A stretch of DNA of 64,000 nucleotides from positions 21,149 to 85,148 of the forward strand of contig DATHKX010000057.1 of the NCBI GenBank assembly GCA_035488835.1. Reading direction: 5' to 3'. This document shows, in pieces, positions 1,339 to 19,323 of this stretch. Positions within the stretch are counted from its first letter, which is position 1. Every line of letters starts with the position of its first letter. This stretch comes from Gemmatimonadales bacterium (GTDB lineage Bacteria > Gemmatimonadota > Gemmatimonadetes > Gemmatimonadales > GWC2-71-9). Made by a program: the position numbers and the translations under genes. The notes beneath the pieces are model-generated. The model was not told the DNA's origin, did no database searches, and was given only the letters and a program-made list of their open reading frames with translations.

Positions 1339-1429
1339 CGGAGGGGGGGGGATTCGAACCCCCGATAGGGGTATTAGCCCCTATAACGGTTTAGCAAACC
1401 GCCGCCTTCAGCCACTCGGCCACCCCTCC
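1339..1429 (-). tRNA. tRNA-Ser (anticodon GCU), class II with a long variable arm
   Basis: Reverse complement reads GGAGGGG-TG-GCCGAGTGGCTGAAGGC-G-GCGGT-TTGCTAA-ACCGT-(variable arm GGGGCTAATACCCC)-GGGGG-TTCGAAT-CCCCC-CCCCTCC-G. The 7-bp acceptor pairs. The loop TTGCTAA gives anticodon GCT. No CCA is encoded. Confidence 0.9.
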
Positions 1430-1454: not shown

Positions 1455-1700
1455 CTAGGCGGGTACCGTGGAAGGTGGCGACTTTGCCGTTACTTTGCCA
1501 TTGAAGCGCTTGGCAACCGCTTCGGCAAGGTCGGCGTCGTTGACGATGTTGTAGTGGTCGAACATGGCCCGCGTTTTCCACCCGCACAGCGCCATGATCG
1601 TGCCCTCATCCACGCCGGCCACGCGGAATTCTAACGACGGATTGACCTTCGAATGCTGAGCGATCTGCCCATCGTGCCCCACCACTCGTCTCGAGCACAC
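1455..1700 (-). pseudogene. Tyrosine recombinase (phage-type integrase) C-terminal remnant
   Basis: The 81-aa ORF keeps only the catalytic-Tyr box region VAGVDEGTIMALCGWKTRAMFDHYNIVNDADLAEAV. The N-terminal and core catalytic parts are missing. It lies 25 bp from the tRNA-Ser 5' end and is a paralog of the relic at 18263-18667. Confidence 0.7.
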
Positions 1701-11952: not shown

Positions 11953-12611
11953 GGCGATAAGGGGGGCGGGGGCGGCTCGAGTCGACTGAGCGCGGAGAGG
12001 TTGCGACCGATCCGCACCGCCACCATCACGAACATCCCGACGACGAGCGCGACCGCCGCGCCGGTGGCGATCGGCGCGACGGCCGCGCCTGGCCCGCTCA
12101 GAGCCAGCGCGATGTTGGCAGCGACGAGGACGATCCGAGCTTCGGTCGGGCCGATCCGGCTGTACCCCAGCCGGAACACGCCGAAGGCCTGGGACTCGAG
12201 ATAGATGTTGATCGACAGGATGAGGTAGGCGAGCACGCCCGCCAGCGCCACGCCCAGATCCACATAGGGAGACAGGCCGATCCCCGCGCCGATCGCCGCC
12301 GTCGAGAACGCATCGACGACATGGTCCAGGTAGTAGCCGTAGCGCGGCCGCTCCGCACGGCGCACGCGCGCGAGCGTTCCGTCCAGACTGTCGCCGAACC
12401 AATTCACCACCAGCAAGGCGCTCGCCGCCCACAGCCACGCCGCGCTCAGGGTGGAAAGCGCGTACGCCACTCCCGTGCCGAGCGCGCCCACCATCCCGAG
12501 GACGGTCAGGCCGTCGGAGGTCATCCACGGCGGCAACCGGGCCGCGATGGCGCGGAGCAGCCACCGCTCGGGCTCGGCGAGCAGGAACGTCAGCTCGCGG
12601 CGCGCCGCCAC
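11838..12611 (-). CDS. CDP-alcohol phosphatidyltransferase family protein (GTG start inferred)
   Basis: The motif DSLDGTLARVRRAERPRYGYYLDHVVD fits D-G-x2-A-R-x8-G-x3-D-x3-D. The protein is multi-pass hydrophobic. The start was chosen at an in-frame GTG overlapping the stop of the upstream gene. The track ORF extends to 12896, but that would overlap the upstream gene. Confidence 0.72.
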   Translation of the reverse strand: MAARRELTFLLAEPERWLLRAIAARLPPWMTSDGLTVLGMVGALGTGVAYALSTLSAAWLWAASALLVVNWFGDSLDGTLARVRRAERPRYGYYLDHVVDAFSTAAIGAGIGLSPYVDLGVALAGVLAYLILSINIYLESQAFGVFRLGYSRIGPTEARIVLVAANIALALSGPGAAVAPIATGAAVALVVGMFVMVAVRIGRNLSALSRLEPPPPPLSPYRRTAFTAASASTYPAPTSHRANPGSGRAVCVRTDAI

Positions 12612-13141
12612 CAGACCATCCGGAGCGAGGGGATCATCAAGAGCGCGAACAGGGCGACCATGATCCACACCGGGACTTGCACGGCGGCACCGAGCCATGC
12701 GAGCAGGGCATAGCGCGGTAGGCAGCGCGCCGCCACGGCGGCGGTGTATTTGCCGGCCGGGCAACCGGTCGCGAACGCCAGGGCTTTGAAGGGGAAGAAC
12801 GGCAGCGGTGTCAGACCCGACAGCGCGATCGTTACAAAGGGGAAGCGACGGAACAACCGCTCGGGCCACGTCCTCACCCCCTGGCCCCCTCTCCACTGAT
12901 CGCGCGCCATCCGCGCGATCAGGGGTACGAACATTCGGTGGTCCGCGACGGCGGCGAGCATCGTGCCCGCCGTCGCGACGAGGGTCGTGGTCCAGACGCC
13001 GAGCCGCGGCCCATACCAGATGATGGCGGGCTCGTGCGGCACAAAGGCGAGGGCGATGTTGGACAGGAACGCGTACGCGAAGAGCAGCGCGGCGGAGGTC
13101 GCGGGGGGATGCATGACCCGATATTCGCGCGCCGCTTTCAA
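12590..13141 (-). CDS. DedA/VTT-domain-like membrane protein
   Basis: 183-aa polytopic ORF. The pattern FVPHEPAIIWYG...LSGLTPLPFFPFKALAFATG resembles SNARE-associated/DedA family proteins. The assignment is tentative. Confidence 0.55.
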   Translation of the reverse strand: MKAAREYRVMHPPATSAALLFAYAFLSNIALAFVPHEPAIIWYGPRLGVWTTTLVATAGTMLAAVADHRMFVPLIARMARDQWRGGQGVRTWPERLFRRFPFVTIALSGLTPLPFFPFKALAFATGCPAGKYTAAVAARCLPRYALLAWLGAAVQVPVWIMVALFALLMIPSLRMVWWRRAAS

Positions 13142-14154: not shown

Positions 14155-14676
14155 TCAGTGAGCCCCATTGGGCATGACCTCATGGTGAGCGGCGTGATGC
14201 TCGGTGCGTTGGAAGGCCAGGAACGCGTGGATGGCCGCGACGGCTGCCGAGTCTGTGGTCCACATGCGAACCTCGGCGCCGCGTGGACGATCGGTAGCCT
14301 CATAGGTGATCTTGCTGCCGCGAGCCGCCATGACCGAGGTACCTGGGACTACGCGGGCATGCACCTGGAACGGTCTGGCAAAGTCTCCGGCTCGAAACGC
14401 CGTCGCGATGTCGCGCATGTGGTGTCGGATCGCGACGATCCCGGCGGTGTCAGAGAGATTGTCAGCGTCAAGGACGATGCGGCCACCATCCCCAAGGTCC
14501 TCAAAAACATGCGCCGATGCGTATTGATCCACGCCCATGACGGTTTGACCGCGTGCCTGCAGGGCCGCGAACGCGCTGTCCGATTGGTGTCTAACAGATT
14601 CGCCCCCGCGCTCGCAGTTGGCGAAAGCGATAATCAGGGCGAGGGTCGAGATCTTCGCGGCGTAGTTTCTTGTCAT
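14155..14676 (-). CDS. Hypothetical lipoprotein with His-rich C-terminus
   Basis: An internal ATG gives MTRNYAAKISTLALIIAFANC (lipobox). The C-terminus reads HHAAHHEVMPNGAH. The track ORF starts at 14739. Confidence 0.5.
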   Translation of the reverse strand: MTRNYAAKISTLALIIAFANCERGGESVRHQSDSAFAALQARGQTVMGVDQYASAHVFEDLGDGGRIVLDADNLSDTAGIVAIRHHMRDIATAFRAGDFARPFQVHARVVPGTSVMAARGSKITYEATDRPRGAEVRMWTTDSAAVAAIHAFLAFQRTEHHAAHHEVMPNGAH

Positions 14677-15009
14677 GGATGGCTCGGGGGCGCCTTGCGG
14701 ATCGCGCCTAAGCTGCGGGCGAAGGGCTGGCCGGCGCAAGTACGGTGAAGGGCTGCTCCCTTCACCGAATCCGTCGTCGTTCTTCTTGCCGCTAAACGTA
14801 GACCGCTAATCTGTTGCGATCGTTAGGCCATCGCAGCCCCGCGCGTTGTCGGCCGAGGGCGATTCCGCTACGCCTCGACGTAAATCCGTTACGCGGTGAT
14901 CGGGATCACGACGCGTTCGCCCTGTGGGTGCTATCAACCAGTGAGCGTGCCGTGTTCAATTCGTCCTGCGAATGTCGCAAAAGGGACGGGCGTTGCTGCA
15001 TTCTGGGAA

Positions 15010-15051
15010 TGGTCGCGACAGGACTCCAACCTGTGACCTCTGGCATGTGAG
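15010..15051 (-). other. tRNA-like 3'-half fragment (anticodon loop to discriminator; Val-CAC-like)
   Basis: Reverse complement reads CTCACAT-GCCAG-AGGTC-ACAGG-TTGGAGT-CCTGT-CGCGACC-A. The T-arm is 16/17 identical to the tRNA-Ser(UGA) T-arm at 18168-18184. No matching 5' anticodon-stem strand or acceptor strand lies upstream. The T-loop has G where the conserved C56 is expected. Confidence 0.35.
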
Positions 15052-15093
15052 AGTCGTAGTTCTCGTGATGCCAACAAAGAGTGGAGGAAAACC

Positions 15094-15942
15094 ATGGCAT
15101 ACCAGGCCGAAATCAGTCGTAAGAACCCGGGTTGTTTCTTGTTTTTGGTGGACCAGTCAGAGTCGATGGAAGACCCTTTTGGCGGCGGAGAGGCTGGCAG
15201 ACAGAAGGCCGAAGAGCTCGCGACGATACTCAACAAGCTCATTCATAACCTGTGCATCCGTTGCTCCAAGTCGGACTCTATGTACGACTACTTTCATGTC
15301 GGTGTGCTGGGCTACAGCGAAGCGAGCTGTAAACCAGCGCTCGGCGGTGAACTGAGCGGGCGCTCTCTGGTACCGATCAGTGAATTGGCCAATAAGCCGT
15401 TGCGCATCGAAGACAGGGTAAAGAAATCGGACGATGGCGCCGGCGGAGTCATGGACCAAACCGTCAAATTTCCAGTCTGGTTCGATCCATACTCGAAGGG
15501 GGGCACTCCGATGTGCGCCGCGCTCAAGGAGGCAACCCAGATTACCCAGACGTGGTGTCAGGAGCATCCGAACGGCTTTCCGCCGATCGTTATCAACATC
15601 ACCGACGGCGAGGCAACGGATGGAGATCTCGTTGCCGAGGCGCGTAAATTAACGGCGGTCAGTGGCGAAGACGGTTCGGTGTTGCTCTTCAACATCCATC
15701 TTTCGTCGACGGCCGGACCATCGATCGAATTACCGGGCAACGGCAACAAACTGCCGGATCAACATGCCAAACAGCTCTTTGAAGCCTCATCGACGCTCAC
15801 ACCATTCATGGTTGCACGCGCGACAGAGCTGGGTATGCCGGCCGAGGAAAACTCTCGAGGATTCATCTTTAACGCGCAACCGTTGCACGTAATCCATTTT
15901 CTCGATATCGGCACGCGACCGGCGAATGTGCATCTGCGCTGA
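15094..15942 (+). CDS. von Willebrand factor A (vWA) domain protein, TerY-like
   Basis: RBS GGAGG upstream. MIDAS elements are present: DQSES (DxSxS), GGTPM and the TDGEATDG Asp. 282 aa. Confidence 0.85.
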   Translation: MAYQAEISRKNPGCFLFLVDQSESMEDPFGGGEAGRQKAEELATILNKLIHNLCIRCSKSDSMYDYFHVGVLGYSEASCKPALGGELSGRSLVPISELANKPLRIEDRVKKSDDGAGGVMDQTVKFPVWFDPYSKGGTPMCAALKEATQITQTWCQEHPNGFPPIVINITDGEATDGDLVAEARKLTAVSGEDGSVLLFNIHLSSTAGPSIELPGNGNKLPDQHAKQLFEASSTLTPFMVARATELGMPAEENSRGFIFNAQPLHVIHFLDIGTRPANVHLR

Positions 15943-15953
15943 GTACCACTGCA

Positions 15954-16754
15954 ATGGGCACCTCCGGCGGTGAAGCACGCCACGCGGCCAACGAGTGCGA
16001 CATCAAGGTCTTCTGCTGCCCAAAGCTGGGCAACAGCCTTGAGGAGTACGAGGATGCCTGGGCGCATCGGCAAACTCGTCCCCCGGTCGGCATCCGCGTG
16101 GCGGTGGCTGACGGCGCCACCGAAAGCAGTTTTGCCAAGCTATGGGCCGTGCTGTTGGCCGAAAGCTATGTGCGAAGTGAGGTCACCGGGGCAGAGTTTT
16201 TTGCGCGGTTGAACCCGGCGCGCCGCCTCTGGCGGCGAAGATTAGCGGGCCGACCTCTCCCCTGGTTCGCTAGCGAAAAGGCCGAGCAGGGGGCCTTTGC
16301 GGCTTTCCTCGGTGTCCAGATTGACGCTCACACGAACCGTTGGACGGCGCTGGCCATGGGCGACTGTTGTCTTATGCAGCTCGATAACGTCGGGAAAAGG
16401 ATGCGGGTGGTCGAAACGTTTCCCTTACAGAAATCTTCGCAATTCACGATGAGCCCTTATCTGATCGGCTCCAGGTCGAATGGGGAATCACTGAACGAAC
16501 GGATACAAATCAGCAAGGGCAGCCTGCGCGATGGAGACATGCTGCTGCTCGCCACGGATGCGATGGCCGCCTGGCTGCTTAAACGGCATGAAGAGGGGCG
16601 ACCATTATGGAATTGGCTTTACCGGAAGCTCGGCACGCCTGAGAGCTTTGCCGCGATCGTCGCCTACGGCCGCAAAAATGGATTGCGCAACGACGACTTC
16701 ACCCTTGTCCGTGTCATTCATCACGATTCACGGGTTGAAGCGAAGGAGAGGTAG
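15954..16754 (+). CDS. PP2C-family protein phosphatase-like protein
   Basis: Metal-binding-type motifs EEYEDAW, VAVADGATES, AMGDCCL and LLLATDAMAAW occur in PP2C order. The gene starts 11 nt after the vWA gene. Confidence 0.72.
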   Translation: MGTSGGEARHAANECDIKVFCCPKLGNSLEEYEDAWAHRQTRPPVGIRVAVADGATESSFAKLWAVLLAESYVRSEVTGAEFFARLNPARRLWRRRLAGRPLPWFASEKAEQGAFAAFLGVQIDAHTNRWTALAMGDCCLMQLDNVGKRMRVVETFPLQKSSQFTMSPYLIGSRSNGESLNERIQISKGSLRDGDMLLLATDAMAAWLLKRHEEGRPLWNWLYRKLGTPESFAAIVAYGRKNGLRNDDFTLVRVIHHDSRVEAKER

Positions 16755-16756
16755 CG

Positions 16757-17800
16757 ATGCGTGCATGGCCAGACCTGACTGAATACCATGAGGCGGTTCA
16801 GCACCCGCCAAAGGCTTTTGCCGACCCAGGATTGAAAGCGGTCACCCTCGAGCTCGATCGGTTCGGTATGCCCAAGCCGGCCACCGGCGGCAACGCCGTG
16901 GTCTACAAGGCCAACGAACCGGGCGGACTTTTGACATTCAAGAAGACCTGGGCAATTCGCTGCTTCCTGCGCCCGATCAGCGACCATGCCGAACGTTATG
17001 AGGCGATCTCCAAACATCTTCGCAAGGTGCGCCTGCCCTATGATGTCAATTTTCAGTTTCTCAAGCAGGGCATTCAAATTCGCTCCAACTGGTTCCCTAT
17101 CGTCAAAATGCAATGGGCCAAGGGCGACCTTCTGCACAGTCACATTGAGAAGCATCTAGGCTATCCGGCCGCACTGGCGGCATTGCGGGTAAAATGGGTC
17201 ACACTTGTTCGCCACCTCGAAGCCGCCCAGGTGGCGCACGGCGATTTACAGCACGGTAATATCCTGGTGCGCGGCGGATCGATCCAGTTGGTGGACTACG
17301 ACGGCATGTGGGTGCCGGCCTTACGGGGCCGCCACGCCACGGAAATCGGCCACCGTGCCTACCAACATCCCGAACGGAGCGAGCAAGACTACGGCCAAGA
17401 GATTGATCGTTTTTCAGCTCTCGTCATTTATCTATCGCTGGCGGCGCTGGAGAGGGATGTCACCCTGTGGGAACGTTTTCATACCGGCGACAATCTGATC
17501 TTCGTGCGCGAAGATTTCCAGCAGTTGGGTCGATCGGCAATTTGGCAACAATTACGCCGTATCGGATCGGGGGAAATCGATCAGCTCGCCGCTGTCGTGG
17601 CGGCCATGGCGCAGCAGCATCCGATGAAGGTCAGCAATCTCGATAGCGTTCTCCAAAATCCGGCGAGCTACAAGTTCCCTAGCTCGATTCCGGCGTCGAC
17701 TCCGCCCCAGCGAGTCGCTCCCAAGCCGGCGCGCGTGCCGACGCCGCCAGTGCCGAGTTGGATGAAAAAGGGCGGTTATCGTGATCATTCGGATGACTGA
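16757..17800 (+). CDS. Ser/Thr protein kinase-like protein with Pro-rich tail
   Basis: RBS GGAGAGG upstream. Gly-loop-like TGGNAVVYKA, catalytic loop HGDLQHGNIL, a DYDG (DFG-equivalent) motif and GHRAYQHPER are present. The gene starts 2 nt after the PP2C stop. Confidence 0.8.
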   Translation: MRAWPDLTEYHEAVQHPPKAFADPGLKAVTLELDRFGMPKPATGGNAVVYKANEPGGLLTFKKTWAIRCFLRPISDHAERYEAISKHLRKVRLPYDVNFQFLKQGIQIRSNWFPIVKMQWAKGDLLHSHIEKHLGYPAALAALRVKWVTLVRHLEAAQVAHGDLQHGNILVRGGSIQLVDYDGMWVPALRGRHATEIGHRAYQHPERSEQDYGQEIDRFSALVIYLSLAALERDVTLWERFHTGDNLIFVREDFQQLGRSAIWQQLRRIGSGEIDQLAAVVAAMAQQHPMKVSNLDSVLQNPASYKFPSSIPASTPPQRVAPKPARVPTPPVPSWMKKGGYRDHSDD

Positions 17801-18159
17801 GGATCATCGGCGGCATTGCTCGTCGCTGACCCTTTCCATCCACTCGACATTTTTGCCGTAGTGACTGCGTCGGCCGGATCGGCTTGCGGCACACGCTCGG
17901 CAGTACAAACCCAGCGCCTCACGAGACACCGAAGCCCGTCACGTAACTCTAGCCCCGCACACAGCGCCGGAATAGCAACGCGCGCGCGTGCGGAATCATG
18001 AGCGCGCGGCTCGTCCGGTCGCGGCGGGCGCACATGATGCTTGTCCACCATGCCGGAAGGGTGATCGCACGGGCTTTGACGCGATCCTCGGCTCGACGGC
18101 GGCGAGTGGAGGCGCCTGACCCCAATGGCCGCGACGCGGCAAGTTGTTGCGGTAGAAAG

Positions 18160-18243
18160 CGGAGGGCACAGGACTCGAACCTGTACGGGCTTGCGCCCAG
18201 CGGTTTTCAAGACCGCCGCCTTACCAGTTAGGTCTAGCCCTCC
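18160..18243 (-). tRNA. tRNA-Ser (anticodon UGA)
   Basis: Reverse complement reads GGAGGGC-TA-GACCTAACTGGTAAGGC-G-GCGGT-CTTGAAA-ACCGC-(variable arm GGGCGCAAGCCC)-ACAGG-TTCGAGT-CCTGT-GCCCTCC-G. The acceptor, anticodon and T stems pair. The D-stem has one A/G mismatch. Confidence 0.85.
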
Positions 18244-18245: not shown

Positions 18246-18262
18246 TGTTACTGCGCTTGAAC

Positions 18263-18667
18263 TTAGCGGCTCAGTGGTACCGTCAGAAGGCCCGATTTTG
18301 TCGCTCCTTTGCCGTTCGGCGCGGCAAAGCGCCGACCGACGGCGGCCGCAAGGTCCGCTTCATCAATCACGTTGTACCTGTCAAACATCGCGTGCGTGCG
18401 CCAGCCGCACAGTCGCATAATCTCACCCTCCGATACGCGGCGCCCGACACCGCCGCGCTGGCCGGGTTCAAAATTCACGGCCAACAACACGGCATCCCCG
18501 GCGTAGAGGGCGCACGTCAGCACCAAGTCCCGGCTCGTCGCGGTTGCGCAAACGCAGGTCGGCCCGCGCTGTGTCACGGCTTCGCCTTCTCTTGCTGTCG
18601 GAGCCATTCGCGCAACTGGCCCAACGGTCGCTCCAAGGACGGCGCGTCCTTCATCGCACTGATCCAC
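18263..18667 (-). pseudogene. Tyrosine recombinase (integrase) remnant
   Basis: RRVSEGEIMRLCGWRTHAMFDRYNVIDEADLAAAV matches the integrase C-terminal Tyr box. The expected HxLRR box is degraded to FEPGQRGG. The N-terminal two thirds are absent, and the upstream part overlaps another small ORF. Confidence 0.7.
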
Positions 18668-18816
18668 CGCTGCGTGAGCGGAGCGTCGCCGTGTCCCGTG
18701 GGCAGCCAGCCGTTGCGGTAGTGCTCGGTCAGGGCCAGCTCGCCAATGCCCACGAGCCGGAACAGTTGGTGCGCCTGCGCGGCGGTGAGCACGAGGCTAA
18801 AGGTTGGCTCGGTCAT
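18574..18816 (-). CDS. Small hypothetical protein (80 aa) of the relic element
   Basis: An internal ATG is preceded by GGAGA at appropriate spacing. The product begins MTEPTFSLVLTAAQAHQLFRLVG. No family recognised. Confidence 0.45.
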   Translation of the reverse strand: MTEPTFSLVLTAAQAHQLFRLVGIGELALTEHYRNGWLPTGHGDAPLTQRWISAMKDAPSLERPLGQLREWLRQQEKAKP

Positions 18817-18865
18817 TCTGTCTCCGTTGCGTCGTCGCGTTTTGGCGCGCAGTTTCAGCGCGAGC

Positions 18866-18891
18866 GCCGATAATAGTGGCCGATAATAGTG
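18866..18891. repeat. Perfect tandem 13-mer (gccgataatagtg x2) in a divergent intergenic region
   Basis: 18866-18878 and 18879-18891 are identical. Each copy contains a TAATAG -10-like hexamer. The repeat lies between the divergently oriented small genes. Confidence 0.85.
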
Positions 18892-18930
18892 AAGGAAGGA
18901 TTGAGGGGCATAACAAAGGGAGGTAGCCCA

Positions 18931-19176
18931 ATGGCCGACAAGGTACCATGTCCGGTATGTGGCGCAGCCTCTGACGGCGGCTACAGCATCGGTGACAGCA
19001 CGGTGTTCAAGTGTCTGCATTGTGGCGGCTATCGCTTGGCGGGAACGGTTATCGCGTTGTTTGAGAAGGGCACCTTGCGGAAGCCAGACCCGAAGGCGTT
19101 CCTGGACCTGGTGCGGCGCAAGCGCGGCAGCTCGCGCGAGTATCCCGTCATAATCCCGGCCGACCTTGGCGGATAA
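18931..19176 (+). CDS. Small zinc-ribbon protein (81 aa)
   Basis: RBS AGGGAGG lies 7 nt upstream of the ATG. CPVC...CLHC forms a four-Cys ribbon. The track ORF starts at an upstream GTG at 18889. Confidence 0.5.
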   Translation: MADKVPCPVCGAASDGGYSIGDSTVFKCLHCGGYRLAGTVIALFEKGTLRKPDPKAFLDLVRRKRGSSREYPVIIPADLGG

Positions 19177-19260
19177 AACTTTGTCGTAACTTTGCCGGCG
19201 GCGCGCTGCGGCACGCGTCAGGCGCGGTCCTACGGCGTCACAGTTAGCTATAAAAGCAAC

Positions 19261-19286
19261 GGCCCCGCTTGGGGCCGTTGTCTTTC
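19261..19286 (+). terminator. Intrinsic-terminator-like hairpin
   Basis: GGCCCC-GCTT-GGGGCC followed by gttgtctttc. It sits immediately before repeat copy B. Confidence 0.45.
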
Positions 19287-19323
19287 AAGACCGCCGCCTT
19301 ACCAGTTAGGTCTAGCCCTCCCG
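19283..19323. repeat. 41-bp direct repeat, copy B (orphan tRNA-Ser 5' half)
   Basis: Identical to 18205-18245. No tRNA 3' half follows it. Confidence 0.95.

Follow-up and report, generated by a model that had tools for sequence, protein, structure and literature searches.

How much of a TerY-phosphorylation (TerY-P) system can be dispensed with is a question raised by a 64,000-nucleotide stretch of DNA from a Gemmatimonadales bacterium (contig DATHKX010000057.1, positions 21,149 to 85,148; referred to below as the window, and numbered from its first letter). Within it, beside a gene for tRNA-Ser(UGA), three genes encode a von Willebrand factor A (vWA) protein resembling TerY, a PP2C-family phosphatase and a short Ser/Thr kinase (Table 1). 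The locus is probably a complete, functional TerY-P-type cassette that was acquired horizontally by its host. The triad belongs to a distinct minimal TerY-P lineage, with a kinase that consists of the catalytic domain and a short proline-rich tail. Other copies of the cassette and related loci used for comparison are designated by L numbers.

Gene content and family assignment

The three genes were initially picked out in a first-pass annotation, which read them as a TerY-P architecture, and this reading is borne out by profile searches, in which the PADLOC profiles TerY, PP2C and STK_OB all match and the Pfam results are concordant. The list of open reading frames (ORFs) gives three plus-strand frames separated by gaps of 11 and 2 nucleotides, the tight packing that had been described. 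The genes are adjacent and co-oriented, occur in the same order in all close and distant loci, and are almost certainly co-transcribed. The order vWA-PP2C-kinase is in fact maintained down to 36% kinase identity, in Planctomycetota, Alphaproteobacteria, Actinomycetota, Chloroflexia and Myxococcota.

The vWA protein was claimed to possess a complete metal ion-dependent adhesion site (MIDAS), and the three motifs named for it (DQSES, GGTPM and TDGEATDG) are all found in the translation. The TerY profile aligns with nearly the whole protein (3.7e-99; positions 1-275 of the 277 in the profile align with residues 1-278), while the Pfam VWA profile scores just under its cut-off (7.7e-5; 23.4 bits, cut-off 23.8). 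At least 90% of the 19 diverse vWA relatives compared keep the MIDAS residues D20, S22, S24, T138 and D171. The phosphatase likewise contains every motif by which it had been recognized as PP2C-like (EEYEDAW, VAVADGATES, GDCCL and LLLATDA) and is matched over its full length by the PADLOC PP2C profile (1.3e-28). Pfam PP2C_2 falls just under its cut-off for the window protein and matches eight of nine diverse family members, the best at 3.5e-9, and the acidic motifs E33-D34, D53-G54, G136-D137, T201-D202 and D247-D248 are invariant among 19 relatives. An hhalign comparison of the phosphatase family profile with one approximate PstP sequence gave a 23-residue match with a probability of 7%.

AlphaFold2 models of the kinase and the phosphatase have a mean pLDDT (predicted local distance difference test score) of 36 and 38, from alignments of 24 and 7 sequences, respectively; these low values are attributed to the alignments, which held near-identical homologues only. 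A sequence search of solved structures with all three proteins returned no close relative, giving generic vWA and kinase matches with E values of at least 0.006.

A kinase reduced to its catalytic core

The motifs on which the kinase assignment had been based (HGDLQHGNIL, DYDG and GHRAYQHPER) are also present in the translation, and Pfam Pkinase gives a concordant match just under its cut-off. The PADLOC STK_OB profile matches strongly (9.1e-77), but only through profile positions 2-289 of 562. When the kinase family profile is compared with protein kinase A (PKA) by hhalign, the probability is 93%; in this alignment HGD163-LQHGN168 corresponds to the catalytic loop, D180 of the DYDG motif to the Asp of DFG, and GHxxYQHPE to the APE segment. 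All family-invariant residues are kept in the window kinase. The residue aligned to the ATP-binding Lys72 of PKA is R68 (16958-16960; motif WAxRCF), which is Arg throughout the kinase family, the other catalytic residues being canonical; this substitution is a trait of the whole family and no defect of the window copy.

The kinase ends at residue 347, only 57 residues past the catalytic domain, and its proline-rich tail (291-347) has no cysteine. What the first-pass annotation overlooked is that this protein, from its sequence, lacks the OB domain of the validated TerY-P kinases, as well as any other C-terminal domain, and so does not have the OB fold that defines the STK-OB subtype. When 1.84 billion cluster representatives were searched exhaustively, 6,964 kinase relatives (representatives of clusters at 50% identity) were returned, of which the best 150 are nearly all 560-1,400 residues long with the kinase domain at the N-terminus, and the 347-residue form corresponds to approximately one 50%-identity cluster. 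At their C-termini, the long relatives that were sampled have WD40, a further kinase domain, a double zinc ribbon or FGE-sulfatase. No vestige of a lost domain was detected, in that tblastn with the C-terminal regions of long relatives gave nothing significant against 17600-18200.

The closest full-length relatives belong to Myxococcota (L033 and L035; P0123 and P0130) and are 58-65% identical to the window proteins in the kinase, 72% in the vWA protein and 49% in PP2C, with the same gene order. Their kinases are 650-730 residues long and continue into WD40 or into a hydrophobic stretch that, as judged by eye, is possibly membrane-spanning, whereas the window kinase stops in the linker. Given the identities and gene order of these closest long forms, the short kinase is most simply regarded as a derived truncation at the linker.

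The short form is widespread. In a word-indexed search, more than 120 clusters at 90% identity contain proteins that are 75-95% identical to the window kinase over its full length. Their lengths fall between 341 and 413 residues, except for one entry of 333 residues (92% query coverage), and the form that recurs is 345-351 residues long. The C-terminal motif PSWMKK..YRD.SDD is conserved. Among independent copies, the median pairwise ratio of nonsynonymous to synonymous substitution rates (dN/dS) is 0.16 for the vWA gene, 0.24 for the phosphatase gene (from only 5 sequences that passed the filter) and 0.28 for the kinase gene, and ORF lengths are preserved in 20-30 independent cassette copies. 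The cassette with the short kinase evolves under purifying selection, and its catalytic and MIDAS residues are all kept.

Comparison with known TerY-P systems

The TerY-phosphorylation triad is defined as TerY together with a Ser/Thr/Tyr kinase and PP2C, with an example in a Helicobacter pylori island (PMC4978471), and the window cassette has the three components of this definition by Anantharaman, Iyer and Aravind (2012). Unlike the ter-gene and DNA-processing neighbourhoods described in 2012, it is solitary, and no ter, WXG100/FtsK or restriction-type genes accompany it. Another counterpart is the stand-alone TerY-P of Gao et al. (2020), which has the same families (PADLOC TerY, PP2C and STK_OB) in the same order and no linked effector. 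According to PMC11090510, the validated kinase of that system has an OB fold at its C-terminus; in place of this OB-fold half, the window kinase, which is known here as a predicted protein, has the 57-residue proline-rich tail. The hosts also differ, the window deriving from a soil member of the Gemmatimonadales. In the TerY-P modules linked to CoCoNuT systems (Type II and III-A, McrBC-like), kinases are described as ending in a zinc ribbon (PMC11090510). The triad of vWA protein, PP2C and Ser/Thr kinase is common to these modules and to the window. However, they form part of large McrBC/HEPN operons, whereas the window tail is free of cysteine and no CoCoNuT, McrBC or helicase genes lie nearby. 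The basic TerY-P assignment is thus of a known kind, and what is new is the core-only kinase, its abundance, its recent transfer among soil bacteria and its repeated insertion beside tRNA genes.

Horizontal spread and association with tRNA genes

Close copies of the cassette in GTDB genomes come mostly from Gemmatimonadales metagenome-assembled genomes (MAGs), and also from Rokuibacteriota, a betaproteobacterial MAG (on a 76-kb contig) and an Acidobacteria gp6 MAG. They share with the window a core block of ~2.7 kb (~15077 to ~17805) at a nucleotide identity of 80-97% (85-97% for nearly all copies), outside of which the flanks are unrelated between loci, and the cluster to which the vWA protein belongs has 750 members. 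The cassette has moved between genomes repeatedly. It has a G+C content of 56-63% compared with 63-71% in host flanks, and is the lower of the two in 19 of the 19 hosts checked. In the window, the triad had been put at 47-50% G+C from hand samples, a figure that needs correcting to 57.8% (vWA 55.6%, PP2C 59.8% and kinase 58.0%). The flanks, at 67.7-69.7%, agree with the backbone value of about 70% given earlier, and the foreign composition that had been claimed is also evident at third codon positions, where G+C is 66-70% in the triad and 92% in the adjoining DUF2723 gene. The neighbours of the cassette change between the loci compared and include no recurrent partner, effector or intact recombinase.

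In 11 of 36 independent contexts (the window not counted), a tRNA gene lies no more than 500 nucleotides from the cassette, the identities being Cys, Trp, His, Ser, Lys/Arg/His, Asn and Leu. The density of tRNA genes is 0.56 per kb near the cassette and 0.023 per kb at greater distance within these loci, an approximately 25-fold difference with a Poisson P of ~3e-17 that is generous because tRNA genes cluster. Overall, the tRNA genes that adjoin the cassette have at least 8 identities; the cassette can lie on either side of the tRNA gene and in either orientation, and it encodes no recombinase.

Each of two MAGs, Rokuibacteriota AR7 (L014 and L016) and Gemmatimonadales SMAG_U6436 (L026 and L068), has two cassette copies on separate contigs, which suggests either repeated acquisition or strain mixtures that were binned together. 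The exact three proteins of the window are in the public record for a Gemmatimonadales MAG as HTD69741.1 to HTD69743.1. The first of these is named "vWA domain-containing protein", and the phosphatase (HTD69742.1) and kinase (HTD69743.1) are each a "hypothetical protein"; members of the clusters to which these two belong are likewise mostly unnamed. With two of its three genes annotated in this way, the system is probably under-counted by annotation-based surveys.

Turnover at the tRNA-Ser(UGA) locus

The history of the window insertion was followed in 80 metagenome loci that encode 75-97% identical orthologues of the flanking DUF2723/TMEM260-like gene. Among these syntenic loci, what is inserted on each side of tRNA-Ser(UGA) varies. 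In the closest relative, L077 (DUF2723 97% identical), the DUF2723 gene is followed by 45 nucleotides, tRNA-Ser(UGA), 556 unrelated nucleotides and then the orthologues of the 245-residue ORF and the VTT gene, such that there is no triad and the tRNA gene is free of inserts on either side. L079, with 96.7% nucleotide identity in the DUF2723 region, has an element on the 5′ side, the tRNA gene, 588 unrelated nucleotides and the orthologue of the 194-residue ORF, again with no triad. Vertical conservation at this position, which had been named beforehand as the outcome that would weaken the defence-island interpretation, is therefore contradicted by the closest relatives.

The triad is present in approximately 8 of the 80 syntenic loci and takes four configurations there, counting L031 and L038 from the genome scan. 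It is located on the 5′ side of tRNA-Ser, pointing towards the tRNA gene in L084 and L038 and away from it in L031 and L126. On the 3′ side, the vWA end lies ~30 nucleotides after tRNA-Ser in L131, L133 and L136, and the kinase end is nearest to tRNA-Ser in the window and L130. Given this patchy presence, the four configurations and the lack of the triad in the closest relatives, the triad is accessory and has been acquired repeatedly at the tRNA-Ser hot spot. A simple inversion linking the two 3′-side configurations was considered and rejected, the leader breakpoints being different (14886 in L131 and 14756 in the window). The locus provides a clean population-level example of the turnover of defence cargo at tRNA hot spots.

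The first-pass annotation had also described the surroundings as a typical defence island. This part of the description does not hold, since none of the six flanking ORFs has a PADLOC match, and the triad stands alone at an integration hot spot and forms no multi-system defence island. The statement that neither an effector nor ter genes are linked to it does agree with the Pfam and PADLOC scan of the adjoining ORFs, and no ter gene of the terD, terC, terZ or terB type was found among the flanking ORFs.

Probable function and alternatives

Stand-alone TerY-P with an STK-OB kinase is reported to protect against T7-like phages (PMC11090510; PMC7699616), and a Pseudomonas aeruginosa TerY-P variant, in the account given of it, gives protection against Autographiviridae whether the multiplicity of infection is low or high, with survival of the cells (10.1101/2022.08.12.503731). 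By analogy with these precedents, it seems reasonably likely that the window triad serves as a stand-alone anti-phage defence based on a phosphorylation switch. This function is inferred, as are trigger, substrate and the part played by the vWA protein, and the mechanistic details are held with less assurance than the function itself. At rest, the phosphatase would cancel the output of the kinase; infection would tip the balance between them, and phage development would be stopped by phosphorylation of a protein of the phage or the host. Because the kinase is devoid of an accessory domain, recognition would have to be a property of the vWA protein or of the kinase core. The vWA MIDAS could bind an acidic or phosphorylated ligand in a metal-dependent manner, and the MIDAS protein is the most likely sensor or adaptor. 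On the vWA protein, the family-conserved S232-S233 and T274 are candidate phosphorylation sites. The minimal triad is a convenient object for biochemical and structural work.

A bolder extension of this scheme, to be taken as tentative and indeed somewhat doubtful, is that the short-kinase triad is a self-contained transfer unit, repeatedly delivered beside tRNA genes without a recombinase of its own, in which the vWA protein, the kinase core and PP2C suffice for immunity and the vWA MIDAS is the sensing element. The triad would then ride on small integrative elements, including those of an integrase family that crosses over in the anticodon loop (see below), and would outlive them; its success although the kinase has no accessory domain would mean that these three components are a sufficient engine of TerY-P immunity.

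Several considerations weigh against immunity as the function of this cassette, or against its reach. The validated systems carry a C-terminal OB fold that may be essential for sensing or targeting, and ordinary kinase chemistry can only be assumed for a family that has Arg at the canonical ATP-binding Lys. No other defence gene was matched by PADLOC in the six flanking ORFs, a scan that covered the immediate neighbours and not the whole 64-kb window. No copy of the cassette was found in IMG/VR viral contigs or PLSDB plasmids that might have served as vehicles, and the cross-phylum range, which spans four phyla, rests on the taxonomic labels of MAGs. Finally, the original proposal from comparative genomics, as related in PMC11090510, was a metal-sensing stress switch rather than immunity.

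Such a stress module, in which the vWA MIDAS would sense a cation or oxyanion and the kinase-phosphatase pair would relay the signal to cellular targets, was originally put forward for those TerY-P triads that are linked to tellurite-resistance genes (PMC11090510). It would suit a cassette that at most loci is alone among housekeeping genes, with no defence genes in its immediate neighbourhood. We nonetheless regard it as unlikely, in that the window flanks contain no ter genes, two TerY-P systems protect against phage, and the patchiness of the triad at the tRNA-Ser locus (~8 of 80 loci), its foreign composition in every host and its re-acquisition in four configurations are unexpected for a housekeeping sensor. 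Conceivably, the triad could instead be a selfish, addiction-like module, with the kinase as toxin, the phosphatase as antidote and the vWA protein as modulator, which is kept as its loss is costly and spreads as the cargo of integrative elements, with or without a benefit to the host against phage. Its extremely wide distribution (more than 120 clusters at 90% identity, and the 750-member vWA cluster), the lack of a linked effector and its survival as the sole remainder of eroded elements, with integrase remnants beside the triad in L001 and deletions trimmed to its edges, are all compatible with this idea. What makes it improbable is that the TerY-P of P. aeruginosa confers protection and leaves the cell alive, and that the vWA gene, at a dN/dS of 0.16, is strongly constrained although it is not obvious what its product would do in a toxin-antidote pair of two parts; moreover, such a module overlaps with abortive-type defence and does not exclude a defence function.

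It is extremely improbable that the locus is a decaying remnant, with a kinase truncated during erosion of the island and a system that no longer works. The kinase does have about half the length of the STK_OB profile, and erosion of the elements around the locus is plain from integrase fragments and ragged flanks, but the 345-351-residue form of the kinase recurs in the >120 clusters, its terminal motif is conserved, and the three ORFs are intact, with catalytic residues kept and dN/dS of 0.16-0.28. An anti-phage switch remains the favoured function. The trigger, substrate and effector step of TerY-P are undescribed in the searchable literature, though phage protection has been shown, and an abundant, selected minimal triad that does without OB, zinc-ribbon and WD40 domains narrows this problem to three small proteins.

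Table 1. Features of the window, in order of position
Feature	Position	Strand	Remarks
tRNA-Ser(GCU)	1339-1429	-	
Second integrase C-terminal remnant	1470-1625	-	58% identical to L120 integrase over 52 residues; directly upstream of tRNA-Ser(GCU)
VTT-domain gene	12590-13141		
Neighbour ORF, 245 aa	13157-13894		
Neighbour ORF, 194 aa	14155-14739	-	no family match
Accessory insert (leader, three genes and trailer)	14756-18130	.	downstream of tRNA-Ser(UGA) 3′ end
Conserved leader travelling with the cassette	14896-15093	+	94-97% identical in L001, L072, L084, L089, L131, L133, L136
tRNA 3′-end-like fragment in leader	15010-15034	-	T arm and acceptor strand CGCGACC-A (discriminator)
TerY-like vWA gene	15094-15942	+	282 aa; complete MIDAS
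PP2C-family phosphatase gene	15954-16754	+	266 aa
Short Ser/Thr kinase gene	16757-17800	+	347 aa; kinase domain and 57-residue Pro-rich tail
Trailer	17801-17950	+	shared to variable lengths with other cassette copies
tRNA-Ser(UGA), integration hot spot	18159-18243	-	ARAGORN; 100% identical in L031 and L038
Eroded integrative element, 5′ side of tRNA-Ser(UGA)	18246-19323	-	separate from triad insert
Integrase C-terminal remnant reading into tRNA	18317-18436		tblastn match with intact L120 integrase
Small ORF inside eroded element	18574-18813	-	
Small ORF inside eroded element	18889-19176	+	
Displaced copy of tRNA-Ser positions 1-42	19280-19323		direct repeat D1 and alignment of copies

Boundaries, leader and trailer of the insert

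The insert has an exact left junction (14755/14756), where the sequence that the window shares with L079, which has no triad (14619-14755), gives way to that shared with L084, which has one (14755-15100). On the right, the junction falls somewhere from 17951 to ~18130 and is followed by a tRNA trailer (18131-18158) common to L131, L133 and L136. Past the stop codon of the kinase gene, the cassette trailer is shared for 5 to 150 nucleotides, reaching 17950 in L011, 17921 in L130 and 17897 in L001.

The leader recurs, in the seven loci listed for it in Table 1, in flanking contexts that are unrelated to that of the window. It starts with the palindrome GTGATCGGGATCAC (14896-14909), which is single-copy within the insert. 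More broadly, the upstream side of the cassette copies is a mosaic with three recurring leader modules, one of which, module B (L021, L022, L025, L027, L029, L031 and L034), has its own palindrome, GTGACAACAGTCAC. These leader palindromes, GTGATCGGGATCAC and GTGACAACAGTCAC, could be operator sites, and no regulator gene is linked to them. Other interpretations of the leader were rejected. It has no Rfam match and folds no better than shuffled sequences (z score −0.63), which disfavours a structured RNA, and no sigma-70-like promoter was found in it. A transposon-like unit with terminal repeats was discarded as well, there being no second copy of GTGATCGGGATCAC at the other end and a ragged downstream edge.

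The triad had been pictured as wedged between a tRNA-like fragment and tRNA-Ser(UGA). Both are present, but the fragment is no scar of a local attachment site and belongs to the leader. Compared with tRNA-Ser, 17 T-arm bases of the fragment match with one mismatch, and the acceptor strand differs. The fragment lies within an 85-nucleotide stretch for which L001, L072, L084, L089, L131 and L136 show 96-99% identity. Because the fragment recurs in this way at loci unrelated to tRNA-Ser, attachment sites of this tRNA gene do not enclose the triad.

The ORFs flanking the cassette were assigned by Pfam to a VTT-domain protein, a CDP-alcohol phosphatidyltransferase and a TMEM260-like (DUF2723) protein, with two lacking a family match; apart from one weak zinc-ribbon match among the cassette neighbours, the matches are to membrane or lipid enzymes. 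The 194-residue ORF, which lies in the segment 13970-14755, is itself variable, being present in L079 and missing from L077 and L083, and the 3′ flank of tRNA-Ser therefore holds more than one accessory segment.

Integrative elements that duplicate tRNA 5′ halves

The cassette resembles tRNA-targeted islands in that it adjoins a tRNA hot spot and that integrase remnants occur beside it or beside its tRNA gene (in the window and L001). It differs from a classical tRNA-integrated island, since the insert contains neither an integrase nor flanking repeats of the local tRNA and triad copies are found on both sides of the tRNA gene and in both orientations. Separate from the triad insert, the 5′ side of tRNA-Ser(UGA) in the window is occupied by an eroded element with an integrase remnant and a displaced tRNA copy (Table 1). 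It belongs to a family of tyrosine-integrase elements in which the integrase gene reads into the 5′ end of the tRNA gene and the crossover lies in the anticodon loop. These elements duplicate the 5′ half of the tRNA gene (positions 1-39 to 1-43) instead of the usual 3′ part; such duplications involve tRNA-Ser(UGA) in 8 loci, and also tRNA-Cys and tRNA-Trp. Besides the window, 5′-half copies of tRNA-Ser are present in L076, L078, L079, L084, L087, L112 and L120. The element of L120 (4050-11127) is intact, with a 384-residue PF00589 integrase, and has a cargo ORF with a weak SIR2-like match. Further elements lie at 6514-8676 in L112, 9150-9340 in L001 and ~360-430 in L064.

In L001, the triad is followed by a 97-nucleotide trailer, a C-terminal integrase fragment and a tRNA-Cys 5′ half. 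In L009, L010 and L075, a trailer of 12-41 nucleotides leads to the tRNA-Cys upstream sequence of L001 and a full tRNA-Cys gene, the arrangement expected from deletion of the integrase, and in L064 a tRNA-Trp 5′ half lies directly past the trailer. Given these arrangements, the 5′-side copies of the triad are best read as cargo that has outlived such elements. The 3′-side copies, including that of the window, are not accounted for in this way.

A second integrase C-terminal remnant in the window lies by another serine tRNA gene, tRNA-Ser(GCU) (Table 1); a search for a duplicated tRNA half over the first 9 kb of the window was negative. One of the two small ORFs inside the eroded element at tRNA-Ser(UGA) encodes a 95-residue zinc-ribbon protein that is 90-100% conserved in L078, L079 and L087.

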